A DNA stretch of 64,000 bases from Alphaproteobacteria bacterium (GCA_963555825.3 CAUVXB020000002.1:608001-672000); one strand, 5' to 3'. Positions 16,514 to 61,786 are shown, numbered from the stretch's first letter. Made by a program: numbers and translations. Notes: generated from the letters alone by a model not told the origin.

Positions 16514-18272
<1,759 letters not shown>

Positions 18273-38084: not shown

Positions 38085-38399
38085 TCATGCGTGCAACGCG
38101 CCCGCGCGCCGTTGAGCGCTGGCCCGGTCCCGTCGCGCCTGTGCAAGCTCGTAGCTCGCTTGCATCCGCATCCAGTGCTCAGCGGTGCCCCAGCCGATAT
38201 CCTCCAGCGCCAGCGCCATGTTCGCCGACACCCCCGCCTTGCCGTTCAGCAGACGCGACAGCGTTCCCCGCTCGCAGCCGAGACGCGCCGCCGTCTCCGT
38301 CACGTTCCAGCCCACATCGTCCATGCTCTCGCGGATGAGTTCGCCCAGGTGCGGCGGGGACTGCATCGGGCCAACGCGATCGTTCTCAATGTCGTTCAT
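38085..38399 (-). CDS. higA: HigA-family antitoxin (HTH-XRE)
   Basis: PPHLGELIRE, TEAA..LG..R.TLSRLLNGKAGVS..MA..L, W.RMQ..YEL. Confidence 0.9.
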   Translation of the reverse strand: MNDIENDRVGPMQSPPHLGELIRESMDDVGWNVTETAARLGCERGTLSRLLNGKAGVSANMALALEDIGWGTAEHWMRMQASYELAQARRDRASAQRRAGALHA

Positions 38400-38418
38400 G
38401 GTGAGCGCTCCCCTGCGG

Positions 38419-38691
38419 TCAGTGATAGTCGATCAGGTCCACCTCCACGGCCTCGCCGTCCTCGAAGCGGAACACCACGCGCCAGTTGCCGGAGACGCGA
38501 ACGCTCCACTGGCCCGCGCGGTCGCCCTTGAGGGGATCTAGCCGAAAGCCCGGCGCGTCGGCGCTGCCCGGATGCGCCGCCTCTTGCAGGCGGAACAGGA
38601 TGCGCCGAAGCCGTGGCACGAGACCGGCAGGCAGCCGCGCGGCATCGTCGCGCTCGTGCAGTGCCCGCAATCCCTTGTGCCTGATCCTCAT
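38419..38691 (-). CDS. higB: HigB-family toxin (RelE superfamily)
   Basis: RHKGL, PGFRL.PLKGDR.G.WSVRVSGNWRVVFRF, VDLIDYH; toxin gene upstream of antitoxin. Confidence 0.92.
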   Translation of the reverse strand: MRIRHKGLRALHERDDAARLPAGLVPRLRRILFRLQEAAHPGSADAPGFRLDPLKGDRAGQWSVRVSGNWRVVFRFEDGEAVEVDLIDYH

Positions 38692-41392: not shown

Positions 41393-42845
41393 GTTCCGGT
41401 CCTCCTTGGACACTTCGATTAAGCCAATTCTGTGTCCAAGGAAATCGGGTCCGACTCACGGCCCCAAGCGCAGAAGGGAGCGCTGCAATAATCTCGGAGC
41501 CCGTATCGAGGAGAGGCTGCCTGTCGAATGCGCTTGGCTCGTTCGGCGACCAGCTAATGCTCTGCTCATCGCGTGGCAGGACAAAGCGGCTCAGCCATTG
41601 CACATCACATCCTGCGACTGCCAAATCTCGATACGAAAATGTTGTGCGCGCTGCGAGTTGCTTCATCGTTGGAATGCTCTTGATGGGAAGAGCTTCGAGA
41701 GGGCGCCCCGGGCCCTCCAGAAACGCGTCCAGATCAGCGCGAGCGCATAGAAGGTCCGATAGAACCAGTAGCGCCTGGCAGCTTCGCTTTGCTGCCCTGA
41801 GTTTGCCGCGGTCAGGCATTCCCTCGACTGCATGAAGGATGTGCTGGAGATGATGTCCGTTTGCCTCACGAAGACCTTCCAAGATTCGATAGTTTGCGCC
41901 ATCGAAGATTACGCGCGTCACGAAGACATCCTCGGCTGGGTCCTCCAGAGGCCCCACTCGCGTGCCAACCGATTTGAACCAGCGCGACGCGTTCTGCAGT
42001 GTCGGACTCCGCCGACCATTGCAGTTCGCTAGGGCCAAGTGCGCAATTGCCTCCAATCGGAGGGTATTTGCCTGCAAAACCGGAAGTGTCAGCAGTCCTC
42101 CGATTGCGGCGACGGACTTGTGCAAGTCACAATGGCCAAAGCCAACTCCGAGACCCCGTGCATCTGAATTGGCCATGTCGTGACGTCACCTTTCTCATCA
42201 ACAAGCGTCTCGTTTTCGGTCTAGATCGGGATTCCCCATATGGAAACCTCCCAGCCCGTTGAGTGTGACTCGAAACCGCTCGACGTGCAATTCGCCTTCG
42301 AATGACAGCCATCTTCGCGCCGATCCGGATGATTGAGGACCAATTGGCGGCGTTGGTGGCGCGGAATGGCATTTTTGCCGGCGATCCGGGCCGATCCGGG
42401 CGCACCGAACCAGATACTCCCACTCGCGCGCGATCACCGCGCACCGCGACCAGTCCCAGTCCGGCGAAAGAGCGGCAAGGCGCAGCAACTCTGCCACGGT
42501 CGTTCGCGCTTGCGAAAGCGGGTTGCGGCCGGCCGGCAGGATTTGCACCCGCCCCCGCGAGACCGGGTCGAGTTCCTGCCACGGTCCGCCCGGCGGGTCC
42601 TTCACGCGCGCCCTGTCGATGTGGAGGGGTGCCGGGCCTTCATCCGCTCCCGCGCTGGCTCGAAAGCGCTACGGGAGGCCGATCCCGGCCTGCTGGCTGC
42701 ATGGCATTGGCTGACCACGCCGGAACGGGAAAGCGCCGGCGGCGGGACGGATGGAGATCGCGCTGGCCGATGGCTCGCGGGTGATCGTCGACCGGGAGGT
42801 GGACGGTTCGGCGCTGGCGCGGGTGCTGGCGGTTCTGGCACGCCG

Positions 42846-43193
42846 ATGATCCCGGTTCCGGGCGGTGTTCGGGTCTGGCTGGCGACCGGGGTGACCGACA
42901 TGCGGCGCGGCATGAACACCCTGGCGCTTCAGGTCCAGGAGGATCTCGGGCGCGACCCGCATGCGGGGGATTTGTGTATCTTCCGCGGTCGTCGAGGCGA
43001 CCTCGTAAAATGCCTGTGGCATGACGGGGTGGGGATCTCGCTCTACGCCAAGCGGCTTGAGCGCGGCCGGTTCCAGTGGCCGACGACGTCGGGGGGTGCG
43101 GTGTCGATCAGCGCGGCGCAGCTGGGCTACCTGCTCGAGGGGATCGATTGGCGGAACCCGGTTCGGACCTGGCGACCGTCTCGCGCGGGCTGA
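42846..43193 (+). CDS. tnpB: IS66 accessory protein TnpB
   Basis: VWLATGVTDMRRG, FRGRRGD..K.LWHDG, YAKRLERGRF.WP, LLEGIDWR. Confidence 0.92.
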   Translation: MIPVPGGVRVWLATGVTDMRRGMNTLALQVQEDLGRDPHAGDLCIFRGRRGDLVKCLWHDGVGISLYAKRLERGRFQWPTTSGGAVSISAAQLGYLLEGIDWRNPVRTWRPSRAG

Positions 43194-43264
43194 TCGGCGG
43201 GGGAACGACGCGGGCGGGAGGAATGTTGTAGCGCCGAATCGGTCGATGTGATTCGATCCCGCCG

Positions 43265-44874
43265 ATGACCGGCGGGTCCAACATCTCAGCCCTGAAGACG
43301 GCCCTCGCGGCGGCCGAGGCGCGGGCTGCGAACGCCGCGGCGAAGGTGTCCGGCGCCGCGGCGGAGATCGCCTTCCTGAAGCTGACGATCGAGAAGCTCA
43401 GGCGCGAGATGTACGGCTGGCGCTCGGAGCGCAAGCAGCGGCTTCTCGACCAGCTGGAGCTTCAGCTCGACGAGCTTGAGGCGAGCGCGACCGAGGACGA
43501 GCTGGCGGCCGAACAGGCGGCGGCCGGAACGACGCAGGTCAAGGGGTTCACGCGTCGCAAGCCGGCCCGCAAGCCGTTTCCTGCGCACCTTCCGCGCGAG
43601 CGCGTGGTAGTGCCGGGGCCGACATCCTGCGCCTGCTGCGGCTCGGAGAAGCTGTCGAAGATCGGCGAGGATGTGACTGAGACGCTGGAGGTGATCCCGC
43701 GCCGCTGGAAGGTGATCCGGTGATCCAGACGGTGCGCGAGAAGTTCACCTGCCGCCATTGCGAGAAGATCTCCCAGCTGCCGGCGCCGTTCCATGCGACA
43801 CCCCGGGGCTGGGCGGGCCCGAACCTGCTGGCGATGATCGTCTTCGAGAAGTACGGCCAGCACCAGCCGCTCAACCGCCAGCGGGATCGCTACGCGCGCG
43901 AAGGTGTCGATCTCAGCCTGTCGACCCTGGCCGACCAGGTGGGCGCCTGCACGGTGGCGCTGCGGCCGCTGCACGAGCGGATCGCGGCGCATGTGCTGGC
44001 GGCGGAGCGTCTGCACGGCGATGACACGCCGGTGCCGGTGCTGGCCAAGGGCAAGACCGCTACCGCGCGGGTCTGGGTCTACGTCCGCGACGACGCGCCG
44101 TTCGGCGGTCCTGACCCGCCGGCGGCACTATTCCGCTACTCGCGGGACCGGTCCGGCGATCACCCGGTCGAGCATCTGCGGACCTTCACCGGGATCCTCC
44201 AGGCGGACATCTACGCCGGCTACAACCGCCTCTATGCGGCCGGAAGATCGCCGGGACCTGTCACCGAGGCAGCGTGCTGGTCGCATTGCTGGAGGAAGTT
44301 CTTCGAGCTCGCCGACATCGCGGCCAGCAAGGGACGCGGCAAGAACGCGCCGCCGATCTCGCCGCTCGCGCTGGAGGCGGTGAAGCGGATCGACGTGCTG
44401 TTCGACATCGAGCGCGGGATCAACGGCAAGGCCGCCGAGCAGCGCCTCGACGTACGCCAGGAGCTGAGCGCGCCGGTGCTGGCCGATCTCAAGGGCTGGA
44501 TGCAGGCCGAGCGCAGGAAGCTGTCGCGCCATTCCCCCGTGGCCAAGGCGATGGATTACATGCTCAGGCGCTGGGACCTCTTCGCCCGCTTCCTCGACGA
44601 CGGCCGCATCTGCCTTACGAACAACGCCGCCGAAAGGGCACTGCGCGGTATCGCTTTGGGCAGGAAGTCGTGGCTGTTCGCCGGCTCCGACCGCGGCGGC
44701 GTGCGGGCGGCGGCGATGTACACGCTCATCGGCACCGCCAAGCTCAACAATGTCGATCCGCAGGCCTGGCTCGCCGACATCCTCGACCGCATCGCCGGGA
44801 CGCCGCAGAGCCAGCTCGACGAACTCCTCCCGTGGAACGGGCAAGACAGCCAGCGGCACGATCAGGCCGCATAG
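43265..44874 (+). pseudogene. tnpC: IS66 transposase TnpC, frameshifted by an 8-bp duplication at 43711-43726
   Basis: PAHLPRERV, KYGQHQPLNRQ, LHGDDTPV, NNAAERALR; GGTGATCCGGTGATCC. Confidence 0.88.
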
Positions 44875-45009
44875 GCCGAGACCTCCGCCTGGCGCTTCCT
44901 CACCGGAAATGCGCCGCCACCAAACTCAGCCCCAAATACCCCGCAGCCTTCGGCGGATGCCTACCTCAGATCAACATCCCTTGCAACGGGAGAGCCGTCC
45001 ATAGATATA

Positions 45010-45192
45010 GTAAGTGACCTCGCTGATCCCCAACTGCCGGATCGCATCCGCCATCGACATGCCCTGGCTGTGCAGAACCTCCGCCTGCCGCAGCAGGCTG
45101 ACGATCTCCTCCGGCTTGTAACGCTTCCTTGCCATCGTTGATCCTCCTCATTCCCAAACCCAAGGATGGACCAATTCGATGGGGGAGGATCA
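45010..45192 (-). mobile_element. IS3-family left end with an orfA fragment
   Basis: TGATCCTCCCCC end; MARKRYKPEEIVSLLRQAEVL..QG..MADAIRQLGISEVTY. Confidence 0.8.
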
Positions 45193-45566
45193 CCAGGAAC
45201 CTGCGCCGTGCCCGTCTTCACCGGAGCCTCGACCTTGCCCTTGATGATTGCGACTGTCGGCTATTTCATGATCTTTACCACGCTGATCGCGCTGGTGCTC
45301 ATCACAGCGGCATCGCCAGGCTGGAGCCAGCGCGGTCCGGTTCGCCGTGCAAGAAGGGGCGATGGGCCCGCCCTAGCAAAGCAGCGAGCGTCGCACCGCC
45401 GAGACCGAAGGGATCAGCGGGTACCGCCGAACCCGGCCGAGAGGTCCTCGCGCGCGATGACGCCGCCCATGTAGTTTCGACTCCCTTCAACGTAAAGACT
45501 CTCCACTTGGCATGCGGATTCATACGCGCTAGTGCACCCGCATATCGCGAGGGTGCAGATCGGCGA

Positions 45567-46250
45567 TTAGCGGCAGAACGGCCAGACTTGATACCAGGAG
45601 TCGCACCGAAAGCTGGATTCACAGCGCACAAGCTGCGCTCTATAACGATCCGAGGTCGCAGCGACCCGCCGGGCGGCACGCTGCACCTTCGGCTTGTCCC
45701 TCCAGGTGCCCCGCCGATATCCGCCCTGCCCTTCGTGGTAGGCGAGGTAGAGGCGCTGCGCGTCGGTGAGGGGTATGCCGAGCTGACGTCTGGTTCGGTG
45801 GTTGTACCAGCCGATGAAGTCCAGGGCATCTTCCATGTCGCCGCGGCTGCGGAACAGACGTCCCCGTTCCGCTTGGTATTCGTTCCAGACCGGATCCTGT
45901 GCCTGCGCATAGCCCTTGGCAGAAGACGGACGGCCGAGCGGTATGAACCAGAGCCATTGGCGCGGCGGCCGGGCGTCGCCCCGATAACTCGATTCGTGGC
46001 GCACGAACGACATCTGCACGTGGATCGGTGTTCCCCAGCGGCTTGCGGACTTCCGGGCATAGTCATACCAGTCGGGGTACTGCCGGAACACCTCGCAGAT
46101 ATCCGCCTGTCGTGTCGGCGGCGATGCGGTGCCACAGCCGGCGAGCGGTATCAATGCGGCCAACAACACGGCCGCGACCAATTTGGGGGAATCGCAGACC
46201 GCTGTCCGCAAGTCGGACAGCCGGAAAGACAAGCGCACTGGCTGCTGCAT
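45567..46250 (-). CDS. Transglycosylase SLT-domain lipoprotein
   Basis: Lipobox LAGC; RHESSY (catalytic Glu); ARPPR..L.FIP..RPSSA.GYAQA; YLAYHEG. Confidence 0.85.
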   Translation of the reverse strand: MQQPVRLSFRLSDLRTAVCDSPKLVAAVLLAALIPLAGCGTASPPTRQADICEVFRQYPDWYDYARKSASRWGTPIHVQMSFVRHESSYRGDARPPRQWLWFIPLGRPSSAKGYAQAQDPVWNEYQAERGRLFRSRGDMEDALDFIGWYNHRTRRQLGIPLTDAQRLYLAYHEGQGGYRRGTWRDKPKVQRAARRVAATSDRYRAQLVRCESSFRCDSWYQVWPFCR

Positions 46251-46329
46251 GCGGTCCTCTTACTGATTTCCTCCGCCTCAGATTCCTCCTCGGGGCCCGG
46301 GCGATCGCCCACACCGGCCAATCACAACA

Positions 46330-47478
46330 TTATTCTATATTGGTGACGCGTGCATTGACTGAATCCCGCGCCAGATGCGCATACCGGGCGGTGGTCCGGA
46401 TCTGGCTGTGCCCGAGCAGCTTGGCGATCACGGGCAGGCTCTCGCCCAGCGCCAGCGCCCTCGACGCGAAGGAATGCCGGCAGTCGTGAATCCTGACGTT
46501 CTCGACCCCCGCGCGCTCCCGCACGATCCGCCACGGGTCGTCCAGGTTGGTCATGTGCGTGTCCGGCTTCTGGCCGGGGATTACCCAGGGGTTGCCCGGA
46601 ACCCGGGGCAGTTCCGCCAGCACCTTCGCCGCCGGCGGCGACAGCGGCACCGCGCGCGGGCCCGTCTTGCTTTCGCGGAGCCTAAATTCGCCGGCCTCGA
46701 GGTCGATGTCAGTCCATTGCAGGGACAGGATCTCGCTCTTGCGGCAGCCGGTCAGCATCAGCAGCCGGATCGCCGCCACGGCATGGACCGACACCCCGCC
46801 CTCGGTGGGGGCCTCGCCGAGAACCTCGCCGAAGCGGCGGAACTCGGTGTCGGTCAGGAACCGCTCGCGCCCGCGCGCCGGGTACTTGCGCACCGACCGG
46901 CAAGGGTTGGTGCCGTCGGGGACCATCTCCCAGTCCGCGGCCATCGCATACATGCGCGACATCAGCGCCACCGCCCGGTTCGCCGCGTAGGGAACCCCGT
47001 TCAGCCGGACGTGGAACGCCGCCACCCGCTCGCGCTCCACCGCGAGCAGCGGGAGTTTGCCGAACTCCGGCACGATGTACTTGCCGAGCAGCCCCCGGAT
47101 GCCCTCCGCCGTGGACTGCTTGCAGCGCACCGCGACATGCTTCTCCATGTAGCGCGCCGCCAAGCCGGCCACCGTCGGCCCGCCCGCGAGCCGGGCCGGC
47201 AGCGGTTCCGGTATCGGGTCTTCGCCCGCCTTGATCCGGTTGACGATCCGCGCCGCCCGGCGCCGCGCCTCGTCGGCGGAGATCACCCCGTGCCGGCCCA
47301 CCGTCACCCGCACCGACTTTCCTTTCGTCCGGCTTTGCACGACGTACATCTTCGTGCCCGAGGCGTAGACCCTGATGCCGAACCCCGGCAGGTCCCGATC
47401 CCAGAACACCGTGTCCTTCTCGACCTTGAGCGCCTCGACGGTGCGCCGGGAGATCGAACGCCGGTTCAGCTTGGCCAT
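46330..47478 (-). CDS. Tyrosine recombinase/integrase with N-terminal arm-DNA-binding domain (Int1)
   Basis: FWDRDLPGFGIRV; LTGCRKSE, ESKTG, HDCRH, LLGH, TARY (full R-K-H-R-H-Y set). Confidence 0.93.
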   Translation of the reverse strand: MAKLNRRSISRRTVEALKVEKDTVFWDRDLPGFGIRVYASGTKMYVVQSRTKGKSVRVTVGRHGVISADEARRRAARIVNRIKAGEDPIPEPLPARLAGGPTVAGLAARYMEKHVAVRCKQSTAEGIRGLLGKYIVPEFGKLPLLAVERERVAAFHVRLNGVPYAANRAVALMSRMYAMAADWEMVPDGTNPCRSVRKYPARGRERFLTDTEFRRFGEVLGEAPTEGGVSVHAVAAIRLLMLTGCRKSEILSLQWTDIDLEAGEFRLRESKTGPRAVPLSPPAAKVLAELPRVPGNPWVIPGQKPDTHMTNLDDPWRIVRERAGVENVRIHDCRHSFASRALALGESLPVIAKLLGHSQIRTTARYAHLARDSVNARVTNIE

Positions 47479-48665
47479 TACGCCGCCTCCGCGCCGTCCG
47501 CCGGCAGGATGTCGGCGCCGATGCTGCCGGCCACTTTGGCCGCCGAGGCCTTCTCGGTGTCGCGCGCGAGATGCGCATAGCGCGCGGTGGTCTCGATCCT
47601 GTTGTGGCCTAACAGCTTCCCGATCATGCTCAGGCTCTCGCCGAGCGCCAGCGCACGGCTCGCCCAGGAATGCCGCAGGTCATGGATGCGCACGTCGTCC
47701 AGCCTGGCCCGGGCACGTACGATCAGCCACGGATCGTTGACGTTGGTCATGCGCGCGCCCGGCTTCTGCCCGGCGATCACCCACGGGTTGTCCGGAACCC
47801 GGGGAATATCTTCCAGCACGCCGGCCACGGCGGGTGTCAGCGGCACCATGCGCGCGCCGGTCTTGCCGTCGCGCAGCCGTAGCTCCCCCACCGTCCGGTC
47901 GATGTCGTCCCACCTGAGCTCCAGCACCTCGTTGCGCCGGCACCCGGTCAGCACCAGCAGCCGGATCGCCGCCGCCGCATGGAGCGACACCGTCCGCTTC
48001 GCCTCCATCTCATCGACCGCCCGGCCGAGCCGGCAATACTCCTCCTCCGTCAGGAACCGCTCGCGCGGGTGCGTCCGGTACTTGCGCACCGCCCGGCATG
48101 GGTTCGGCCCGTGCTCCCGCAGGCCCCATTCGACGGCCAGCGACAGCACCTTGGCCACGATCTTCAGCACCGCGTTCGCCGCATGGGGCTCGCCGCGCAT
48201 CGCGTAATGCAGTTCCATCACCTGCTCGCGCCCGACCTCGCCCACACGCATCTCGCCCAGCGCCGGCAGGATGTGGTTGTCGAGCGCCCGCCGGTAGACC
48301 TCCGCGCTCGACGCCCTGCAGTGCGAGGGCACGTAATCGCGCATGTAGCGCTCGGCGAGAACGGCCATCGTCGGCTCGGGCTCCGGCGGAAGGGGAATCG
48401 GATCCTCGCCCCGCTTGATGCGGTCGATGGCCTCCGCCGCCCGGCGCCGCGCCTCGTCGGCGGTGAGTTTCCCGTGCCGTCCAAGCGTCGCCCTCTTCGA
48501 CCCGCCGGGGCCGCGCGACTGGACGACGTATTTCTTCAGGCCCGAGGGATAGACCCTGATGCCGAAGCCGGGGAGGTCCCGGTCCCAGAACACGGCGTCG
48601 CGATGCTCGACCGACAACGCGTCGACGGTGCGTTTGGTGATAACCCGTTCCTGGCGTCTCGGCAT
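47478..48665 (-). CDS. Tyrosine recombinase/integrase with arm-binding domain (Int2)
   Basis: ITKRTVDAL..FWDRDLPGFG; LTGCRRNE, DGKTG, HDLRH, LLGH, TARY; stop overlaps the Int1 start (TAATG). Confidence 0.93.
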   Translation of the reverse strand: MPRRQERVITKRTVDALSVEHRDAVFWDRDLPGFGIRVYPSGLKKYVVQSRGPGGSKRATLGRHGKLTADEARRRAAEAIDRIKRGEDPIPLPPEPEPTMAVLAERYMRDYVPSHCRASSAEVYRRALDNHILPALGEMRVGEVGREQVMELHYAMRGEPHAANAVLKIVAKVLSLAVEWGLREHGPNPCRAVRKYRTHPRERFLTEEEYCRLGRAVDEMEAKRTVSLHAAAAIRLLVLTGCRRNEVLELRWDDIDRTVGELRLRDGKTGARMVPLTPAVAGVLEDIPRVPDNPWVIAGQKPGARMTNVNDPWLIVRARARLDDVRIHDLRHSWASRALALGESLSMIGKLLGHNRIETTARYAHLARDTEKASAAKVAGSIGADILPADGAEAA

Positions 48666-48752
48666 GGCGTTCCCGGCTATTCTCGTTCTGCCGCCCGGAC
48701 GATCCGTAAGCACTATGCAAGCGACCGCCCTCAAACCGGGGCGCATCATGGC

Positions 48753-48771
48753 GCGTCCCTGACAGGGACGC
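48753..48771. promoter_or_regulatory. 19-bp palindrome between the divergent integrase pairs
   Basis: GCGTCCCTG-A-CAGGGACGC. Confidence 0.5.
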
Positions 48772-48873
48772 AAGCGGGAAATGGCAGCGAAAATCTTCTA
48801 GAAACATAGGAGAACCGCTACTTTATCGCACTCCTGCGCATCTCTGCGCAGCCGTGGCGATGCGGGAGAATTA

Positions 48874-50073
48874 ATGCATCATGATATGACCGGCTTCGGC
48901 ATCCAGGTGCATCCCTCCGGCATCAAATCCTTCTTCGTCAACTACCGCACCGGCAACGGTGGCAGAAAGGCATCCAACAAGCGTGTCGTTCTTGGCCGCT
49001 TTGGCAGGATGTCACCCGAGCAGGCGAGGCGTCTCGCCCATCAGGCACTGGGCAAGGTCGCTGGTGGCGCCGACCCGGCAGGCGAGCGCGCCGAGGTGCG
49101 CGGCATGCCTCTTCTCAAGCAGGCCTTCACCGATTACATGGCGGGTAATCCCAACCGGGCGGCGCGCACCGAAAAACTGTACCTTGAACAGTTCGCCCGC
49201 TATCTCGGCGACTGGCAACTGCGTCCCCTTGACAGCATCACCCGGCGGGACGTGGAGGATCGTTTCAGCCGCCTCACGGAAGATCATGGCTGGGCCTGCG
49301 CCAACCGGGGAATATCGCTCCTGGGTTCGATATACCGCCGGCCATGCGTCGATTTCGAGGGCCTGCGCAACCCGGTCGACCTGTGGCGCGCCGGAGGCGG
49401 CAAGTATCATCGCCCGAAGCGGCGCAAGATCTCCGCACCCGCCGAGGTGCTGCCGCGCTGGCGGGCGGGCATCGAAGCGGTGGTGGCGACGCCGAAGGTC
49501 CGGGATGCATTCTGGTTCGGGCTCTATACGGGAATGCGCCTCAACGAGGTGCTGTCCCTGCGGTGGGAACGAGTGGACATGGCGGAGCTTGTCTTCCGGG
49601 TTGATGAAACCAAGACCGGCGAGCCCCTGGAACTGCCCATCACCCGGCAACTGGCGGCCATCCTCGAACACCGCAACCGGGAGAGCGAAACGCTACCGGG
49701 CGATCTTCGCGGCTGGGTGTTCCCGTCCTCAGCCAGAGCAGGCCACATCTCTGACCTCAGTCAATTCTATGCGCGAATCGGAACGGCGGGCGGTGCGAAG
49801 TTCTGGTACCACGCACTGCGGAATTGTTTCATTACCGTCGCCGAGCGCGACCTGCTGCTGCCGCTGTCCTTGACCAAACGGCTTGTCAACCACGCCCGGC
49901 CCAACGACGTCACCGAGGGCTACGCCGCCGACTGGACCATCGGGCAACTGCGGGAACCGGCTCAGCGCATCGCGGATCGGATCGAGGCACTGATGAACGA
50001 TTGCCCGGCCAAAACGGCCACGGCAAGCTCCATCGGCAGGCCCCGCGTGCCGCACTGGATCAGTCCGGAATGA
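48874..50073 (+). CDS. P4-like tyrosine integrase (Int3), probably missing about 30 N-terminal residues
   Basis: TGFGIQV.PSG.KSF..NYR; YTGMRLNE, ETKTG, YHALRN, LVNH, TEGY. Confidence 0.88.
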   Translation: MHHDMTGFGIQVHPSGIKSFFVNYRTGNGGRKASNKRVVLGRFGRMSPEQARRLAHQALGKVAGGADPAGERAEVRGMPLLKQAFTDYMAGNPNRAARTEKLYLEQFARYLGDWQLRPLDSITRRDVEDRFSRLTEDHGWACANRGISLLGSIYRRPCVDFEGLRNPVDLWRAGGGKYHRPKRRKISAPAEVLPRWRAGIEAVVATPKVRDAFWFGLYTGMRLNEVLSLRWERVDMAELVFRVDETKTGEPLELPITRQLAAILEHRNRESETLPGDLRGWVFPSSARAGHISDLSQFYARIGTAGGAKFWYHALRNCFITVAERDLLLPLSLTKRLVNHARPNDVTEGYAADWTIGQLREPAQRIADRIEALMNDCPAKTATASSIGRPRVPHWISPE

Positions 50074-51323
50074 CGAAACCCTCCGGAAAACGTATCGCGC
50101 TGAACAAGCTGTCCTTGACCAAACGCACTGTCGAGGCGCTGAAGCCCGCCGCCAAGTCCTGGATCGCCTGGGATGACACCTTGACCGGGTTCGGTATCCG
50201 AGTGCAGCCCACCGGCCTCAAATCCTACATCGTCAACTACCGCGCTGGAGACGGCGGAAGAAAGGCGCCCAACAAGCGCGTCGTTCTTGGCCGCCACGGC
50301 GGGATAACGGCCGAGCAAGCCCGGCATATGGCGCAGCGGGTGTTGCGCGAAGCCGGCGACGGTCCGGCGGGCGGGCGCGCCGAGACGGGCGGCATGCCCC
50401 TGCTCGAGCAAGCCTTCGATGACTATATGGCGGTCAATCCCAAACGAACCACGCGCACCAATAAACACTATCGCAACATATTCGGCTATCTCGCCGACTG
50501 GCGCATGCGTCCGCTCGACGCCATCGGCCGCCGGGATGTAGAGGACCGTTTCAACAGCCTCACCCGGAATAACGGTTGGGCGCCGGCCAACATGTCGATA
50601 TCGCTCCTGGGTTCGATCTATCGCCGGCCCTGCGTCGATCTCGAGGGCCTGCGCAACCCGGTCGAGCTGTGGCGCGCCGGCGGCGGCAAGTATCATCCCC
50701 CGAAGCGGCGCAAGATCTCCGCTCCGGCGGAGGTGCTGCCGCGCTGGAAGAAAGGCATCGAGGCGGGGGCCATCGCGCCGGTTGCCCGGGACGCGTTCCG
50801 GTTCGGGCTGTACACCGGCATGCGCCTGAACGAGGTGTTGCCGCTCCGGTGGGAGCGCGTGGACATGGCGGAGCTTGTCTTCCGCGTTGACGAGACCAAG
50901 ACCGGCGCCCCCCTGGAACTGCCCATTACCCGGCAACTGGCCGCCATCCTCGAACGCCGCCGGGCAGTGATCGCGACCCTGCCGGGCGGGCTTCGGGACT
51001 GGGTGTTCCCGTCCTCCGCCAGCGCCTCGGGCCATGTCGTCGACTTGGCTCATTTCTACCGGCTGATCGGCGAGACGGGCGGCACGAAGTTCTGGTACCA
51101 CGCTTTGCGGAATTGTTTCATCACAGTGGCAGAGCGCGACCTGCTGCTGCCGCGCACTTTGACCAAGCGGCTGGTCAACCACGTCCGGCCCAACGACATC
51201 ACCGAGGGATACGCGGCCGACTGGACCATCGGGCAACTGCGCGAACCCGCGCAGGGCATCGCTGACCGGATCGATGCCCTTATGAACGCAACCGCGGCGG
51301 CGGCTCCGTCAAACCCGCCGTAA
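50070..51323 (+). CDS. P4-like tyrosine integrase (Int4), close paralog of Int3
   Basis: ATGA overlap with Int3; LTKRTVEALKP..WDDTLTGFG; same catalytic motifs. Confidence 0.9.
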   Translation: MTKPSGKRIALNKLSLTKRTVEALKPAAKSWIAWDDTLTGFGIRVQPTGLKSYIVNYRAGDGGRKAPNKRVVLGRHGGITAEQARHMAQRVLREAGDGPAGGRAETGGMPLLEQAFDDYMAVNPKRTTRTNKHYRNIFGYLADWRMRPLDAIGRRDVEDRFNSLTRNNGWAPANMSISLLGSIYRRPCVDLEGLRNPVELWRAGGGKYHPPKRRKISAPAEVLPRWKKGIEAGAIAPVARDAFRFGLYTGMRLNEVLPLRWERVDMAELVFRVDETKTGAPLELPITRQLAAILERRRAVIATLPGGLRDWVFPSSASASGHVVDLAHFYRLIGETGGTKFWYHALRNCFITVAERDLLLPRTLTKRLVNHVRPNDITEGYAADWTIGQLREPAQGIADRIDALMNATAAAAPSNPP

Positions 51324-51464
51324 ATGGGATCAAAACATCGAGTATTATAACGTGGAATGTCGGGAACGCTGCATGATGCTTGAGACTTAACGAGTGGGAT
51401 TTTGGTTTCCGCAAGTGTTCAAACTTGATGGGCGCAGCCCGAAGAACCTGCCACCTCCTGACGG

Positions 51465-51800
51465 ATGAAGACATCTCCATACTTTCGTCCACGCTGGCCC
51501 TGGGTCACGGCCGACCTTCAGACGATACGGAATGTTTTTCCGGGAAGGCTTTCGGGCATCCCGCCGAATTCCGGGCAACGTTTCGAGATACCTCTCCGTG
51601 ACGAAAGCGCGGACCTACTCGCCGCACGCTTCCACAACGGACGAAAGCCGGTTCCAACCGTGGTTCTGGTGCCCGGACTGGCTGGCTGCGAGGCAAGCCG
51701 GTACGTTCTGCAGTCGGCGGGCGTGTGGCTGGCAGGCGGTGCTCCGGTTGTCCGCCTGAACCTTCGGGGCTCGCCTCCAGGGCATCGTCAAGTTAACTGA
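51465..51800 (+). pseudogene. YheT-family alpha/beta hydrolase N-terminal fragment
   Basis: FRPRWPW...LQTI, VVLV.GLAGC..S.Y, VVRLNLRG; truncated. Confidence 0.7.
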
Positions 51801-51920
51801 TTGTAGGCTGTTTTCGGCATTTTCCATGAGGCTAAGCCATTGAAATTTTGTAGCGCAGCCATCGACAATTTAACGAGATTTCTGAGTAAATCCAGCTAAC
51901 TTGGCAATGCCCTCGCCAGT

Positions 51921-52020
51921 GTGGGCAGCCTGATTCTTGGCGCGGCGCCGGATTTCGAACCCAGGACCTACGGTTGCTCCAGTCTGAGCATGTTGGTCAC
52001 GAAGTCTGGCGGATTCCCTG
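51921..52020 (+). pseudogene. OST-HTH/LOTUS domain fragment (C-terminus of a NYN protein)
   Basis: GSLI....PDFEPRTYGC.SLS.LV...G.F. Confidence 0.55.
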
Positions 52021-52074
52021 GCACAACGAGTTCGCGCTCGCCTATGTCTACCTGGAACGCGCCTTCCCGCGATA

Positions 52075-52420
52075 GCCGAGCCCGGCAGTTCAACGCCCAT
52101 TATGACGACTATTGCTTCCAGCCCATCCATATCTTCGAGGCGGCCACGGGCAAGCCGGTGCTCTCGCTCCTGCGCCCCGGCAAGCGGCCCTCCGCGGAGA
52201 GGAGGTCGCCCAGGTCCTGAAACACGTCATCCGCCGCATCCGGCACAACTGGCCCCGGGTCCAAATCACCGTGCGTGGCGATGGTCATTACGGAACGCCG
52301 GAGGTCATGGAATTCCTGGAAGATCAAGGCTGCGGCTACATCTTCGGCCTATCCGGCAACGCCCGGCTGAGCAAGATCGGCCATCCGTGGTGCGAGGACG
52401 CGGCGGTTCGCCGCGCCCGT
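52075..52420 (+). pseudogene. IS1380-family transposase internal fragment (possible left end near 51777)
   Basis: FNAHYDDYCFQPIHIF, LRPGKRPS, VRGDGHY..PEVM, YIFGL.GN..L; frameshifted. Confidence 0.75.
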
Positions 52421-52479
52421 CCTCTGCCTCTTCCGTCAACTCCGACCGGCCGTAATAGAAATCGTTCAGGGCGACGATC

Positions 52480-52752
52480 ATGCTGACCGACGCCGACGCC
52501 TCCTTGTCGTCGCTCAGCGCGATCTCCTCCGAACTCGACCGGATGGCGCCGGGGTTGATCCCGGAATTCGTGCGTAATCTGAACGCCTGGACCAAATCTC
52601 GGCAAATCGGGAAACGCGGAAGCAGTGTTGCCCAGCCCCATGTCCGGTTTGGGCGAGAGGAGCCGACGGCATTCGGTCGCAAGGTGGGCCGCAACGAACC
52701 CTGTCCGTGCGGTTCCGGCCGGAAGTACAAGCGCTGCTGCGGCGCGCACTGA
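52480..52752 (+). pseudogene. SEC-C motif protein C-terminal part (YecA/UPF0149-like)
   Basis: [21 protein letters not shown]; APGLIP..V..LN.W. Confidence 0.65.
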
Positions 52753-52896
52753 CCGGTCATTGGCAATGAAGGGAGAGCTGACTTCGGTCGGCGGGCAGCG
52801 AGGCCGGCGACAATTCGTGGTAGTCGGTTGCAAGAACCGGGCCATGAACCGGCCGTGAATAGCAGGGCGGCACCACGGCGTCGGGGAGGAGAATAG

Positions 52897-52973
52897 ATGA
52901 ACAAGGCGGAAATGGCCGATCGCCTGGCCGCCCGGACCGGCTTGAACAAGGTCGGCGCAAGGGACGCGGATGA
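52897..52973 (+). pseudogene. hup: HU DNA-binding protein N-terminal fragment, truncated by IS66
   Basis: RBS GAGGAG; MNKAEMADRLAARTGLNKVGARDA. Confidence 0.65.
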
Positions 52974-53045
52974 GTACCCATCCGGCCAGGACCGCGGTGA
53001 GTTTACTTTTGGCCCGTGATGTTGGGCAGCATCGTGGAACGTGAG

Positions 53046-54666
53046 TTATGCGGCTAGTGTGTCGGCGGCCTGGGCCTGCTTCCAGTTCCAGGGGAGGAGC
53101 TCGTCGAGGCGCTGGGACGAATGGTCGGCGATGCGAGCGAGCACGTCGGCGAGCCAGGCCTGAGGATCGACGTCGTTCATTTTCGCCGTGACGATCAGGG
53201 TGTACATGAACGCGGCTCTGTGACCGCCACGGTCGGAGCCGGCGAACAGCCAGGCCTTCCTGCCGAGCGCGATACCACGCAGGGCCCGCTCGGCGGCATT
53301 GTTGGTCAGGCAAACCCGGCCGTCCTCGAGGAACCGGGCAAAGCCCGGCCAGCGTTTGAGCATGTAGTCCATGGCCTTGGCGACCGGGGCATGGCGGGAC
53401 AGCCGCGCGCGTTCGGCGCGCAGCCAGGCTTCGAGCTCGGCGAGCAACGGTGCGGACCGCTCGGCCCGGACCGTGAGCCGCCCCTCGGCGCTCAATCTAT
53501 TGATCTCCCGCTCGACGTCGAACAGGGCGTCGATCCGCGTCACGGCCTCAAAGGCCAGCGGCGAGATGATGGCGCCCGCCTTGCCCTTCTTCGCCCCCCT
53601 TTTTGCCGAGGCGGCGATGTCGGCCAGGACAAAGAACTTGCGCCGCGCATGGGACCAGCAGAGCGCCTCGGTGACCGGCCCCGGAGAGCGGCCAAGCGCA
53701 TACAGCCTGTTGTACCCGGCATAGGCATCGGCCTGCAGGATCCCGGTAAAGCCGGTCAGGTGCTTCTCGGGATGCGCGCCGGATCGATCGCGCGAGTAAT
53801 AGAACAACGCCGCCGGCGGATCGGCGCCTCCAGAGGGTGCATCGTCGCGCACATAGACCCAGGCCCGCGCCGTGTCGGTCTTGCCCTTCGCCAGCACCGG
53901 CACCGTGGTGTCGTCGCCATGAATGCGCTCGGCGGCCAGCACATGGGCCGCGATCAAGTCGTGGAGCGGTCGCAGCACGGTGGAAGCCGCCTACCTGGTC
54001 GGCCAGGGTCGACAGGCTGAGCTCCACGCCCTCGCGGCCATAGCGCTCGCTCTGCCGGTTCAACGGCTGATGTTGGCCATACTTCTCGAACAGGATCATG
54101 GCCAGCAGGCTCGGACCCGCCCAACCCCGCGGGGTCACATGGAACGGTGCGGGGGCTTGCAAGATCTTCTCGCAGTCCCGGCAGGTGAACTTCTCGCGTA
54201 CCGTCTGGACCACCTTCCAGCTGCGCGGGATCACCTCCAGCGTCTCGGTGATGTCCTCGCCCAGCTTGGAAAGCCGATCCGAGCCGCAACAGCCACAGAC
54301 CTCAGGCGCCGGAACCACCACGCGCTCGCGCGGCAGATGCTCCGGGAACGGCTTGCGCGATGGCCGCCTGCGAGTGAAAGACTTGACTGTCGAGGTCTTC
54401 GCGGCTGCCTGTTCGGCGGCGAGCTCGTCCTCGCTCGCGCGCGCCTCCAGCTCCTCGAGCTCCAGCTCCAGCTGGTCGAGCAGGCGCGCCTTGCGCTCCG
54501 AGCGTTGGCCGTAGACCTCGCGCCGCAGCTTCTCGACCATCAGTTTCAGGGCGGCGATGATCGCCTCGGCGTTCGAGGCCTTGGCCACCGCCTCCTCGGC
54601 CCGCGCCTCGGCGACCGCAAGGGCGGCGCGCAGGGCCTCGATATCGGACGCTGTGGCGCGGATCAT
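53046..54666 (-). pseudogene. tnpC: IS66 TnpC, frameshifted near 53985
   Basis: Two overlapping ORFs reconstruct TnpC (PEHLPRERV; IHGDDTTV; NNAAERALR). Confidence 0.87.
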
Positions 54667-54738
54667 AGCGCCGAGCGAATCATACCCGCCGGATTTGAGT
54701 CACGCTCTTTCTTGCGCGGCTCCGTCGCTTTGCCGCGG

Positions 54739-55086
54739 TCAACCCGCGCGCTCGGGCCGCCAGCTGCGCACCGGACGCCGCCAGTCGATCCCTTCGAGCA
54801 GATAACCGAGCTGGGCCGGCGAAACCGCGACCACGCCATCGGCTGGTGAGGGCCAGATGAACCGGCCGTGCTCTAGCCGCTTGGCGTAGAGCGAGGTACC
54901 CAGTCCGTCATGCCACAGCACCTTGATCAGATTGCCGCGACGGCCCCGGAATACGAACAGATCGCCGGCATAAGGATCGCGCCCCAGGGCCTCCTGGACT
55001 TGAAGCGTCAGCCCGTTCATGCCACGGCGCATGTCCGTAACGCCGGTCGCCAGCCAGACCCGAACCCCGGAGGGAACCGGGATCAT
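54739..55086 (-). CDS. tnpB: IS66 TnpB
   Basis: VWLATGVTDMRRG, LWHDG, KRLEHGRFIWP. Confidence 0.92.
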   Translation of the reverse strand: MIPVPSGVRVWLATGVTDMRRGMNGLTLQVQEALGRDPYAGDLFVFRGRRGNLIKVLWHDGLGTSLYAKRLEHGRFIWPSPADGVVAVSPAQLGYLLEGIDWRRPVRSWRPERAG

Positions 55087-55459
55087 CGCGCCTCTAGCGC
55101 CGCCACGACCCGCGCCAGCGCCAGGACATCGACATCGGCGCCAACCATGATCCGCTGGCCTGTTACGGTTACGATCTCCATGCGCCCAACAGCCGCAGCC
55201 GCGCCCAGCGGCGCTTCCTCGTCAGGCACGATCAGCGCCGGCGCAAAGCCGATCACCTCGTCGCGACCGCGACGAAACGCTTTGCGCCAGGAGAACAACA
55301 ACGAGGGCGAGATGTCGTGGCGACACGCGGTCGCAGATACCTGTCGGTGACCCTGGAAACTCTCCTCGACGATCCGCAGCTTCTCCGCCACGCTCCAGCG
55401 CCGACGGCGACCGGTGTTTACCACCTCGAGACGCTGAACCTGGAAACTATCCTTATGAA
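55083..55459 (-). pseudogene. tnpA: IS66 TnpA, 5' end cut by IS21
   Basis: GRRRRWSVAEKLRIVEES, HDISPSLLFSWRK, ALARVV.AL. Confidence 0.82.
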
Positions 55460-55666
55460 TGTCAATGGCGGAGCAAAAAGGGACCACCTCGGCGGTGTAA
55501 GAAGGGACCGCTTGGCGGCTGCGGGCTTGTCCCCGTAGTCCACGGGAGGGCCCCGCGCGCGACGCGGCGTGCCCTCAACAGGCTGACGCGGCGGCGCGCG
55601 CGGGAGGGACCTGTGGGCCCACGGGGTCAAGCGTGGAGCTATGTCCGAAAGTTGGTGACGGAGCTA

Positions 55667-58845: not shown

Positions 58846-59610
58846 TCAGTTAGCAGTCGGGGTTTGACGCCTGCGGCTCTGGTTGAGCCTGTAGCTGTCA
58901 CCGTTCATCTCGAGGATGTTGACGTGGTGGGTGAGGCGATCGAGGAGCGCGCCGGTGAGGCGCTCGGAGCCGAACACCTCGGTCCATTCGTCGAAGGGCA
59001 GATTGGTGGTGACCAGGGTCGAGCCCCGCTCGTAGCGTTGGCTGAACACCTCGAACAACAGCTCGGCGCCGGTCTTCGACAGCGGCACGAAGCCGAGTTC
59101 GTCGACGATCAGAAGCTTGTAGGTGGCGAGCTTCTTCTGGAACCTCAGCAGCTGCTTGTCATCGCGGGCCTCGATGAGTTCGTGGACCAGCGCGGCGGCG
59201 GTGATGAAGCCGACCGAGAGGCCCTTCTGGCAGGCCGCCAGGCCGAGACCGAGGGCGATGTGGGTCTTGCCGGTCCCACTGTTGCCGAGCGCGATGAGGT
59301 TCTCGCGGCGCTCGATGTACTCGCAGCGGGCCAGCTCCAGGACCAGCGCCTTGTTGAGCGAGGGGATGACCTTGAAGTCGAAGCTGTCGAGGCTCTTGAC
59401 CACGGGGAAGCGCGCCGCCTTGATGCGCCGCTCGACCATGCGGCGCTCGCGGTCGATCAGCTCGAGCTCGGCGAGTCTCAACAGGTAGCGGACGTGATCG
59501 ACGCCTTCCGAGGCGCACTGCCGGGCGATCTTGTCGTACTCGCGCAGGAAGGTCGGCAGCTTCAGCGTCTTGAGGTGGTGGGCGAGCAGCACTTGCGGTG
59601 TGTCGGTCAT
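58846..59610 (-). CDS. istB: IS21 IstB
   Basis: Protein identical to copy 1. Confidence 0.93.
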   Translation of the reverse strand: MTDTPQVLLAHHLKTLKLPTFLREYDKIARQCASEGVDHVRYLLRLAELELIDRERRMVERRIKAARFPVVKSLDSFDFKVIPSLNKALVLELARCEYIERRENLIALGNSGTGKTHIALGLGLAACQKGLSVGFITAAALVHELIEARDDKQLLRFQKKLATYKLLIVDELGFVPLSKTGAELLFEVFSQRYERGSTLVTTNLPFDEWTEVFGSERLTGALLDRLTHHVNILEMNGDSYRLNQSRRRQTPTAN

Positions 59611-61720: not shown

Positions 61721-61786
61721 TGACCTGCCCCCCAAAACCTGGCCCAGGCGGAATGTTAGTCTTGGGCCGTTGGAGAGGAGGTCAAG

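Follow-up and report, generated by a model that had tools for sequence, protein, structure and literature searches.

The window analysed here, a stretch of 64,000 nucleotides from an Alphaproteobacteria bacterium, carries four tyrosine integrase genes (Int1 to Int4) arranged as two divergent pairs. The features of this cluster, with positions counted from the first base of the window, are as follows.

46330-47478, minus strand: Int1, 382 aa, second position of the Int2-Int1 module, 3′-truncated (Pfam PF13356 and PF00589; clade)
46330-46352, minus strand: foreign 3′ end of Int1 (blastn and end alignments)
47476-47480, minus strand: TAATG stop/start overlap of Int2 and Int1, read directly; identical junction in locus L009
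47478-48665, minus strand: Int2, 395 aa, first position, apparently whole (Pfam PF13356, PF22022, PF14659, and PF00589); 95-96% identity with the first-position gene at L009
48666-48873: spacer between the divergent pairs, 208 bp
48666-48887, minus strand: leader of the Int2-Int1 module, 222 bp, conserved, with phased short direct repeats; outer end at 48875-48887
48874-50073, plus strand: Int3, 399 aa, first position of the Int3-Int4 module, its own first 37 codons missing
48888-48899, plus strand: junction, where the clipped Int3 body begins with the codons for the G-F-G motif; putative integration target
50070-50073, plus strand: ATGA start/stop overlap of Int4 and Int3, read directly
50070-51323, plus strand: Int4, 417 aa, second position of the Int3-Int4 module, apparently whole (Pfam PF13356 and PF00589)

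Anatomy and Condition of the Integrase Cluster

All four proteins scored above the Pfam gathering cut-offs for PF00589 (84.4, 81.7, 41.0, and 37.0 bits; cut-off 27.1) and PF13356 (Arm-DNA-bind_3; 45.3, 44.9, 58.0, and 42.3 bits; cut-off 27), and all retain the catalytic R, K, H-x-x-R, H, and Tyr in the alignment, with the Tyr of Int3 and Int4 one column off; by these domains and residues all are arm-type ("complex") tyrosine integrases. The start assigned to Int2 is the ATG used by its homologues, the longest open reading frame (ORF) extending to 48773. Identity is 56% between Int1 and Int2 and 74% between Int3 and Int4, as compared to 29-33% between the two subtypes. An earlier note, made from the sequence alone, had described four arm-type integrases forming two divergent pairs, one overlapping at TAATG and the other at ATGA, a complete R-K-HxxR-H-Y set in each protein, a 208-bp spacer, and two pair subtypes; the ORFs, the HMM scan that it had proposed, the alignment, and the measured coordinates agree with it on each of these points.

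Two of the four genes are truncated. The match of Int3 to PF13356 covers profile positions 18-82 alone, indicating that the gene is 5′-clipped, as the earlier note had suspected; Int3 aligns with residues 38-432 of the full-length protein P0125 at 97.7% identity, the break lies at 48887/48888, and the start ATG comes from the neighbouring leader. At the other edge of the cluster, homology of Int1 to loci L009, L005, and L006 ends at 46352 (blastn and end alignments). Int1 is 96-98% identical to the 409-aa proteins P0001 and P0002 but diverges past residue ~375, where, by the conserved positions of alignment A2, ~35 conserved C-terminal residues are gone and 7 unrelated ones stand instead; this 3′ truncation is absent from the earlier note, whose description of the cluster as largely intact was too generous. 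With the conserved C-terminal tail missing from Int1 and the start of the arm domain from Int3, both proteins may be inactive.

The window is dense in insertion sequences and remnants of conjugative DNA. A tRNA scan found no tRNA gene in it, so it is not a tRNA hotspot, and megablast returned no plasmid match to 46000-51600. Of 46 small ORFs (45-140 aa) in 44900-53000, the 27 outside integrase coding regions were scanned against Pfam and contained no excisionase-like gene, in line with the earlier failure to recognise one; the single ORF with helix-turn-helix (HTH) matches (44971-45135) gave weak scores, below cut-off, to transposase-type HTH models. Neither an Rfam scan (E up to 0.1) nor a promoter scan found anything in the region, and its one terminator-like match was below shuffle expectation.

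Conservation of the Int2-Int1 Pair

A scan of one genome per species yielded 540 relatives of Int1; 79 loci were retained. Of these, 56 carry an intact pair of adjacent, co-oriented genes; at 11 more the pair is damaged, runs off a contig end, or has a wider gap between its genes. Nine loci have a single gene and three are unclear. Among the 56 intact pairs, 22 overlap (16 of them by 4 nt), 27 have stop-to-start offsets of 0 to +40 nt, and seven have larger ones. The proteins group by their position within the pair: position labels change three to four times on a 120-row tree (shuffled mean 40; 0 of 500 shuffles as low), every one of 59 first-position proteins is nearer to another locus's first protein than to its own partner, and Int1 clusters with second-position proteins. 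The first and second proteins also diverge in step, with a correlation of r = 0.91 between their pairwise identity matrices that none of 500 permutations reached (highest, 0.30). The residues R, K, H, R, H, and Y are kept in 59/59 first-position and 56-59/59 second-position proteins, the shortfall being due to alignment gaps. Such co-evolving, overlapping pairs occur in metagenome-assembled genomes (MAGs) from several phyla and, among cultured bacteria, on plasmids of Sphingomonadales and Rhodobacterales; no description of them was found in the literature searched. For Int2-Int1, this survey, which the earlier note had called for, bears out its proposal that coupled paralogous integrases form a conserved functional unit. 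The outcomes that it had named as refuting did not occur for this pair, since the pair recurs elsewhere and the paralogues group by position rather than by genome; on these comparisons the pair is an ancient, conserved two-gene unit.

These patterns bear on the reading that four unrelated single-integrase elements, each integrase working alone, accreted by chance at a hotspot. The crowding of the window with mobile DNA would suit that reading, as would the extra integrase-like ORFs found within 4 kb at 27 related loci. For Int2 and Int1, however, pair conservation, position-specific clades, and co-divergence exclude it, and for Int3 and Int4 the pairing of clades and the fusions described below argue against it; we regard it as extremely improbable.

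No conserved third gene or neighbour was found beside the pairs, the largest non-integrase clusters comprising 5-7 loci and consisting of relaxases or transposases, and at none of the 79 loci do three full-length, co-oriented integrase genes lie adjacent. Relaxase genes lie 1-6 kb away in seven loci, i.e., four of the single-integrase L032 family and the pair loci L016, L018, and L029. Within 1 kb of the pairs there is no convincing conserved ORF of 35-130 aa; the largest cluster of small ORFs (8 loci) represents a conserved leader DNA motif read as peptide. No excisionase-like gene is conserved beside pairs at the related loci. In L008, a second pair, of the Int1/Int2 type, is located ~3 kb away.

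Int3-Int4 as a Probable Second Paired Lineage

Evidence for the second pair is less direct but points the same way. The C-terminal tail of P0125, which is encoded on another contig, is identical to the one encoded across the start of Int4. In the tree of Int3/4 relatives, Int4 (89% identical to P0121) belongs to clade A and Int3 to clade C, and three protein pairs, the two members of each coming from contigs of equal length, consist of one clade-A (Int4-type) and one clade-C (Int3-type) member. In addition, two Int3/Int4-related integrases are fused in frame in each of four proteins of 789-868 aa. Adjacency of Int3-type and Int4-type genes outside the window is deduced here from these proteins rather than seen directly; together they suggest that Int3-Int4 belongs to a second paired lineage.

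The paralogues of a pair could also divide the work without forming a heteromer, one integrating and the other excising or setting direction in place of the missing excisionase, or each serving its own att site. Each protein retains its arm domain and every catalytic residue and could thus act by itself, and the lack of an excisionase-like gene, both near the pairs of the window and as a conserved neighbour elsewhere, is in keeping with such an arrangement. Gene coupling and overlap, strict co-divergence, and in-frame fusions nevertheless fit one joint complex better, and we judge a division of labour of this kind to be decidedly unlikely. Residues that separate first from second proteins number zero at a threshold of 85% and three at 70%, and hence provide no clear specificity signature for binding of distinct half-sites.

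Leader and Junction between the Two Modules

The leader of the Int2-Int1 module is 95% identical to those of L009 and L059, as far as 48888-48899, and contains blocks that are conserved over 52 leaders; it is probably an arm or regulatory region. Beyond its outer end, the neighbours differ: these three modules, which are ~95% identical, adjoin Int3 in the window, a gene with a CHASE2 domain in L009, and an Int1-like gene in L059. In four of the five closest relatives (the window, L005, L006, and L059), an integrase clipped at the same codon abuts the module end, the clipped partners being two Int3/4-like and two Int1/2-like genes; L009, whose flank is not an integrase gene, has a similar short word there. 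An in-frame start codon (ATG, TTG, or GTG) stands at the junction in the same four loci and also in L009, where it is antisense to the non-integrase gene. The junctions of the window and L005 could go back to a single old event; clear independence rests mainly on the comparison of the window, L059, and L009.

The earlier note had also raised the possibility of a single, undescribed four-integrase element, in which the two divergent pairs would cooperate. The four genes are contiguous, the pairs face away from a short spacer, and a divergent integrase beside a pair recurs in L005, L006, L008, and L059. Yet each directly abutting partner is clipped at the junction and the partners are of differing type, L009 (95% identical) has no such partner, full-length Int3 elsewhere has 37 more codons, and a second pair of the Int3/Int4 type diverging from the leader end was found at none of the 79 loci. 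With this layout absent from the survey, differing left neighbours, and a junction that truncates Int3, the four-integrase reading appears largely refuted, and we consider it very improbable.

Four queries of 40-45 aa were searched against all loci and the window for the displaced first 37 codons, which were not found within 10 kb in L005, L006, L009, or L059, nor in the window; the lone match, at 61661-61732, was weak. A second copy of the leader-end word (≤3 mismatches) was found neither in the window nor in L005, L006, L009, L018, or L059, and three other leader words gave no convincing copies elsewhere. On these results the junction does not demonstrate a simple insertion and is explained equally well by a deletion or some other rearrangement at a site prone to recombination. 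For neither module did the window or any MAG locus yield a definable att site or second end. The truncated CHASE2-domain gene of L009 was searched for beyond the module, where its continuation would have revealed a simple 2.5-kb insertion; none was found, and insertion sequences intervene.

Unit of Mobility

High-identity copies of the module in different genomes share ~2.5-2.9 kb of DNA homology alone, i.e., the leader and the two genes, whereas 5.5-9.6 kb of shared cargo was detected by the same method in a single-integrase family. The only comparison of a filled and an empty site comes from the Sphingobium sp. YBL2 plasmid NZ_CP010956.1, where an insertion of 26,655 bp interrupts an efflux adaptor gene. 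A pair with a 4-bp overlap lies 12 bp from the left end of the insert, which is flanked on both sides by a 16-bp direct repeat with one mismatch; three other plasmids carry the uninterrupted site. It was presumably the pair, rather than another enzyme, that moved this island, the gene table of the plasmid being incomplete. The Sphingobium pair is ~36% identical to Int1, and plasmid pairs form their own first/second split in a 56-row tree, so attributing the same behaviour to the window lineage would be an extrapolation. In Leisingera, a shared stretch of ~75-210 bp marks one junction and a cargo of ~20 kb is suggested; no second repeat copy was found. All island hallmarks (integrases at the end, cargo, direct repeats, and an empty site) are present in Sphingobium YBL2; in the window they could not be demonstrated, both modules having lost their far ends.

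The short shared length raises the possibility that the leader and two integrases (~2.5 kb) are themselves an autonomous, cargo-less, insertion sequence-like "recombinase in duo", analogous to the RIT trios, that moves alone and accumulates in graveyards of mobile DNA. Several short contigs (2.9-4.5 kb) hold little beyond a pair, several genomes have 3-4 copies, no neighbour gene is conserved, and the Leisingera copy has just the 2.6-kb module in common with another plasmid. On the other hand, the Sphingobium insertion is a 26.7-kb island rather than a 2.5-kb one, recent bursts are not indicated, copies inside one genome being at most 85% identical, the 2.5-kb unit is not enclosed by terminal repeats, either inverted or direct, and relaxase genes accompany the seven loci named above. 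We consider a cargo-less unit unlikely.

Comparison with Known Recombinase Systems

Arm-type integrases are usually treated as single enzymes with an excisionase and are annotated gene by gene as "site-specific integrase". The single P4-like or arm-type integrases of islands have the same PF13356 and PF00589 architecture as the window proteins, but they work alone, usually with an excisionase, whereas two co-evolving paralogues are found here. A further resemblance is insertion in the 5′ end of a gene, as reported for an island of this class (PMC4482086; dusA-associated integrases); for the Int2-Int1 module, however, the target is apparently another integrase gene.

XerC and XerD, which resolve chromosome dimers, are paralogous, catalytic tyrosine recombinases that form a heterotetramer on an asymmetric site, and provide a model for how a coupled pair could work. 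They have no arm-binding domain, serve housekeeping functions, are usually not encoded by adjacent overlapping genes, and do not head islands, in contrast to the arm-type proteins of the window with their adjacent, overlapping genes. Int1 and Int2 scored 55.7-61.8 bits against TIGR02224 and TIGR02225, far below the NCBIfam equivalog cut-offs (335.15 and 329.6), and Int3 and Int4 gave no match; the window proteins are thus not members of XerC/XerD. Scores against the integron integrase model TIGR02249 (15.7-45.7 bits) were also below its cut-off of 265.

Among multi-recombinase elements, Tn554 (TnpA, TnpB, and TnpC) needs two adjacent tyrosine recombinases for movement (PMC3414803; PMC10214605). 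It combines one ordinary and one large recombinase with the small TnpC and is found in Firmicutes and Actinobacteria; the window pairs are set apart by their layout, with both partners ~380-430 aa long and carrying PF13356, and no third gene. GInt (ginABCD) and SE (intA-tfp-intB-srap) elements are described as having a left-end multi-recombinase operon, variable cargo, and site-specific insertion (PMC5385486; PMC10214605), an overall layout like that of the Sphingobium island. They have three recombinase-like genes, one without the catalytic motif, and a small protein, whereas the window pairs comprise two fully catalytic genes with arm domains and no small partner.

RIT elements consist of co-oriented recombinase genes overlapping by 4-8 bp, with RitA, RitB, and RitC position families, and occur in several copies per genome without cargo (PMC3414803); the RIT subgroups are classed among "simple" tyrosine recombinases without arm domains (PMC8138268). 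The window pairs are likewise co-oriented and overlapping with position-specific families, but they cannot be placed among RITs, having two genes per unit (67 of 79 loci show two) and PF13356 in all four proteins. BIM modules were dropped as candidate two-integrase elements, consisting of one recombinase and an unrelated protein (PMC3414803). ICEs in general have the integrase gene beside the att site (PMC8138268).

Proposed Model and Its Significance

Overall, the cluster probably represents two independent two-integrase modules of genomic islands, placed back-to-back with one nested in the other, whose integrases act as heteromers. Each module would comprise a short leader and, behind it, two paralogous arm-type tyrosine integrases coupled in translation; located at one end of an island with variable cargo, it would serve for integration and excision. 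The paralogues would most likely act as a heteromer that could replace the usual single integrase, each binding one half of an asymmetric core site and carrying out one pair of strand exchanges in the manner of XerC and XerD; co-divergence and the natural single-polypeptide fusions in a related lineage strengthen this XerC/D-like proposal, which the earlier note had put forward. The 5′ part of Int3 may have received the Int2-Int1 module, or its island, by site-specific integration at the arm-domain G-F-G codons, which would have taken away the Int3 promoter and first 37 codons and left the two modules head-to-head; subsequent decay in this region rich in insertion sequences could then have cost Int1 its C-terminal tail and either module the cargo behind it. 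We infer the heteromer, the target preference, and this order of events from the comparisons above.

A stronger and speculative version, to which we give little weight for now, is that paired arm-type integrases are obligate heterotetramers and constitute an undescribed, widespread class of island modules, with the Int2-Int1 lineage specialised on G-F-G-coding DNA in other arm-type integrase genes. Insertion would then swap the promoter and first ~35 codons of the target integrase for an incoming start codon and four codons. If so, an incoming island would disable or re-wire the integrase of a resident one, a form of competition between mobile elements, and the apparent preference for integrase genes would explain pile-ups of integrases such as that in the window.

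If the pairs are two-subunit recombinases, programs that find islands or predict att sites on the assumption of a single integrase per element would mis-delimit many islands, and the pairs would offer a tractable new system for studying the division of strand exchange between subunits and the control of direction where no excisionase is present. With its defined 16-bp repeat and natural empty sites, the island of Sphingobium YBL2 provides a directly testable case in a harmless cultured bacterium.

The Four Integrase Genes of the Window

The four integrase genes that the earlier note had read from the sequence were recovered as open reading frames (ORFs), arranged in two divergent pairs:

46330–47478, minus strand: Int1, ORF of 382 aa
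47478–48665, minus strand: Int2, ORF of 395 aa counted from the ATG that homologues use
48874–50073, plus strand: Int3, ORF of 399 aa
50070–51323, plus strand: Int4, ORF of 417 aa

Direct reading confirmed the overlaps within the pairs (TAATG at 47476–47480 and ATGA at 50070–50073) and the 208-bp spacer between them, and every protein retains the catalytic residues; in the HMM scan suggested in that note, all four exceeded the Pfam cut-offs for both PF13356 (arm DNA binding) and PF00589 (catalysis). None of the four reached the NCBIfam equivalog cut-offs for Xer or integron integrases, and the best matches among solved structures are remote Xer-type proteins, with E-values no better than 2e-11. 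Identity is 56% between Int1 and Int2, 74% between Int3 and Int4, and approximately 30% between the two subtypes.

The description of this cluster as largely intact had to be abandoned, as two of its four genes (Int1 and Int3) are damaged. The tail of Int1 is replaced from 46352, where the gene diverges from the DNA of three related loci (L005, L006, and L009) and from its near relatives P0001 and P0002 (96–98% identical, 409 aa, with a conserved C-terminal tail), to end in seven unrelated residues. Int3 is 97.7% identical to residues 38–432 of P0125, a full-length protein of 432 aa with a cluster size of 811 member sequences; because this match begins at residue 38, Int3 is missing its own first 37 codons. 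The mutual homology of Int3 and Int4 begins at 48887.

Int2–Int1 Type Pairs Are Conserved and Co-Evolve

An alignment of Int1 relatives, searched against a genome set in which each species was represented once, yielded 540 relatives and 79 retained loci, almost all from metagenome-assembled genomes (MAGs), with titles that name Alphaproteobacteria, Gammaproteobacteria, Candidatus Binatia, Nitrospinota, Acidobacteriota, and other taxa. An intact, co-oriented neighboring pair was found in 56 of these 79 loci, and in 11 more the pair was damaged, ran off the contig, or had a gap of 390–608 bp between its genes; nine loci presented a single integrase and three were unclear. The stop codon of the first gene overlapped the start of the second in 22 of the 56 intact pairs (by 4 nt in 16 of them), while the gap was 0–40 nt in 27 and larger in seven; here the second gene was assumed to begin at whichever start codon lay closest to that stop, a choice that may favor overlaps.

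First-position proteins (such as Int2) and second-position proteins (such as Int1) form distinct clades, the question for which the earlier note had suggested a phylogeny. On a tree of 120 rows, the position labels require 3–4 changes, as compared to approximately 40 when shuffled, and the branching of one half is mirrored in the other. The pairwise-identity matrices of first and second proteins correlate with r = 0.91, a value not reached in any of 500 permutations (maximum 0.30). For each of the 59 first proteins compared, a foreign first protein is nearer than the partner in its own pair (median identity within a pair, 54%), and the six catalytic residues are kept in 59/59 first and 56–59 of 59 second proteins. 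Eight of the best 120 protein hits to Int1 were 565–666 aa long; in the two that were examined, an Int2-like sequence reads through into an Int1-like one. Int2–Int1 is a conserved, co-evolving pair. A chance accretion of integrases, which would fit the extra integrase-like ORFs present within 4 kb in 27 loci, is extremely improbable given the mirrored tree.

Extent and Leader of the Module

High-identity copies in different genomes (L063/L067, 96%; L030/L039, 93%; L033/L052, 92%; L047/L050, 89%; L026/L078, 98%) share DNA homology only over a 150–350 bp leader and the two integrase genes, with homology stopping 0–150 bp past the second stop codon; a single-integrase family in the same run had 5.5–9.6 kb in common, including a TrwC relaxase gene. 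Islands in L032, L036, L042, and L045 (about 9700–19300), in which a single Int1-like integrase is followed by a TrwC-type relaxase, are 87–96% identical over this common length, whether compared inside one MAG or across MAGs, and are likely to be integrative mobilizable elements.

No conserved non-integrase neighbor of the pairs was found in the flanks of the related loci. Flanking gene clusters that recur in several loci encode PIN toxins, relaxases, or transposases; a gene-by-gene scan found defense-type genes in the flanks of the four closest loci, and PIN or other toxin-antitoxin genes directly adjoin integrase pairs in at least seven MAG loci and two plasmids (L003 and L004).

The leader (48666–48887 for Int2–Int1) contains blocks conserved across 52 pair loci of distant sub-families, in the ~260 nt that precede the first integrase gene. 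These comprise two pairs of short direct repeats approximately 10–11 nt apart (about one helical turn), a repeated TTTGAT word, and a GATAA word that precedes an AT-rich stretch. No Rfam match was found in the leader; judged by their sequence, these blocks are putative arm or operator sites.

Junction between the Two Modules

The Int2–Int1 module of the window (46352 to ~48898) is 95.5% identical to that of L009, and its first gene plus leader are 94.7% identical to those of L059. The left flanks differ: the window has Int3 at this place, L009 a truncated CHASE2-domain gene, and L059 an Int1-like integrase. The earlier note had proposed one undescribed four-integrase element with heteromeric intasomes; while its coupled paralogues stand as a conserved unit, a single element of four genes, which the back-to-back arrangement had suggested, is very unlikely in view of three different left flanks beside modules that are ~95% identical. 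As read from these alignments, the four-gene cluster is the junction of two modules.

Five members of one sub-family (the window, L005, L006, L009, and L059) were aligned at this junction. In all five, the leader ends with the word (G/C)ATATCAT(G/A)(A/T)TGCA and the flank starts with CGAA(G/A)CC, the antisense of G-F-G codons. Four of these flanks are integrase bodies, all of them clipped at one and the same codon:

Window: Int3
L005: Int3/4-like, open ORF
L006: Int1/2-like, frameshifted
L059: Int1-like, open ORF

Direct reading showed that the leader end contributes ATG, TTG, or GTG in frame, four codons ahead of the G-F-G motif. Among the 47 loci whose first gene was intact and located where expected, a clipped-integrase flank was convincing only in L005 and L006, and this junction is therefore a trait of one sub-family rather than of all pairs. 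A third candidate, L053, was rejected, its match 15 bp from the first-gene start not being integrase-like.

The Int2–Int1 module, or an island headed by it, probably entered Int3 by recombination at the site that codes for G-F-G, with decay driven by insertion sequences (IS) following its entry. No displaced N-terminal integrase piece was found within 10 kb, and a clean insertion is thus unproven. A weak match to the Int2 N-terminus at 61661–61732 (58% over 24 aa, E = 0.001) may represent an orphan integrase 5′ fragment or chance. The window holds two damaged module copies of two lineages, one apparently nested in the other.

Int3–Int4 as a Probable Second Paired Lineage

The C-terminal tail of P0125 is that of Int3 and is encoded across the Int4 start. 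In a FastTree phylogeny of 125 rows, Int4 belongs to clade A (13 rows) and Int3 to clade C (16 rows). Hits on equal-sized contigs form three pairs (contig sizes 14166, 71097, and 81766), every one of which joins an A member to a C member of the matching sub-clade; their common contig is deduced solely from equal contig size. Four proteins (P0241–P0244; 789–868 aa, ~50% identical), which are four of the five hits from a search among longer proteins, are in-frame tandem fusions of two complete arm-type integrases of the Int3/Int4 family; they have a conserved linker and represent four 90%-identity clusters on different contigs. Among the loci compared, Int3/4-like genes occur only singly (L005, L008, L045, and L073). 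On this indirect evidence, Int3–Int4 looks like a second paired lineage.

Relatives in Plasmids and Phages

No plasmid record was more than 60% identical. Eight plasmid records were inspected, most of them picked because they matched at more than one place. Two integrase genes with a 4-bp overlap are present in six (Aurantiacibacter, Polymorphobacter, Novosphingobium, Sphingorhabdus, Sphingobium, and Leisingera); of the other two, one has a single integrase and one lacks annotation. Position separates the proteins of these pairs as well, with 6/6 first proteins in one clade and 5/6 second proteins in another. Phage records presented only single relatives with <34% identity.

In the Sphingobium sp. 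YBL2 plasmid NZ_CP010956.1, the left flank matches pSF1 with 99.7% identity until 12 bp short of the first integrase gene, and pSF1 sequence picks up again 26,655 bp on with 99.9% identity. The insert splits an efflux adaptor gene, uninterrupted in pSF1 and two further plasmids, and is bounded by a 16-bp direct repeat, CACACCGTAC(G/C)CAGCC. It contains ~24 cargo genes, and the pair are the sole recombinase genes listed in an incomplete gene table; the pair appears to have moved this island, although the incompleteness of the table leaves room for another enzyme. The Leisingera example (L091, NC_023136.1, 1–24000) is partial, as no second repeat copy was found at the island. Its pair, listed with the second gene alone, stands at the head of ~17 kb of cargo genes for metabolism, among them those of a betaine-type ABC transporter and a trimethylamine methyltransferase; where this cargo stops, backbone-like sequence resumes. 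A cargo-less mobile element of 2.5 kb would account for homology confined to leader and two genes; beside these cargo-bearing islands it is possible but unlikely.

Proposed Mode of Action and Comparison with Known Systems

We infer that each pair would be a two-subunit integrase whose partners act jointly in one complex, because overlapping or closely spaced genes would give equal-dose expression, both partners have full catalytic sets, their divergence has long been joint, natural fusions unite them in a single polypeptide, and neither an excisionase nor any third gene accompanies them. XerC/XerD is the evident working model for a two-subunit tyrosine recombinase. A division of labor between paralogues without a heteromer would likewise be served by two complete catalytic sets; with the fusions in mind, we regard it as rather improbable.

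Multi-recombinase elements were compared by their descriptions in PMC3414803, PMC5385486, PMC10214605, PMC8138268, and PMC5737581. In the passages concerned, Tn554 has two recombinases and TnpC (PMC3414803, PMC10214605), RIT elements are recombinase trios (PMC3414803, PMC8138268), GInt islands carry ginABCD (PMC5385486), SE islands carry intA-tfp-intB-srap (PMC10214605), and BIM combines one recombinase with an unrelated protein (PMC3414803); unlike the pairs of the window, none of these, as so described, is a duo of arm-type integrases. No description of paired arm-type integrases was found in the open full-text literature, the scope of a search that excluded subscription journals and supplementary tables, and the two-integrase module, which is widespread, is apparently undescribed.

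Surroundings of the Cluster

The window contains no tRNA gene and is rich in IS66, IS21, IS3, IS256, IS1595, and IS5-type transposase genes. The following features surround the cluster:

1940–3731, 7511–9493, 13614–14102, and 45567–46250: UmuD/UmuC-like genes, type IV coupling protein, SSB, and SLT_4 transglycosylase
31791–34105 (plus strand), 58846–61160 (minus strand), and 62899–63983 (minus strand): three copies of an IS21-type element (transposase and IstB helper)
42333–44874 (plus strand) and 53046–55487 (minus strand): IS66-family elements, inverted and bracketing the integrase cluster

The genes of the first line, scattered among transposases, are what is left of a conjugative plasmid or ICE that hosted the integrase modules; the SLT_4 lytic transglycosylase gene lies directly past the truncated Int1 end. 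IS21-type copies 1 and 2 have equal Pfam scores, as does copy 3 at the window edge, for which only the IstB ORF was scanned, and all three are 78–81% identical to the same IS21 of L009. The right-hand IS66 transposase consists of two overlapping ORFs (53046–53978 and 53548–54666), suggesting a frameshift.

Two further gene pairs were observed in the window. A 1084-aa SNF2-family helicase with DUF3670, followed by a SWIM zinc-finger protein (23934–28752), may be a defense- or repair-type pair; in L005, a different SNF2 helicase adjoins a TIR/ORC-like gene. A HigB-like toxin gene and an HTH antitoxin gene are located at 38085–38691 on the minus strand.
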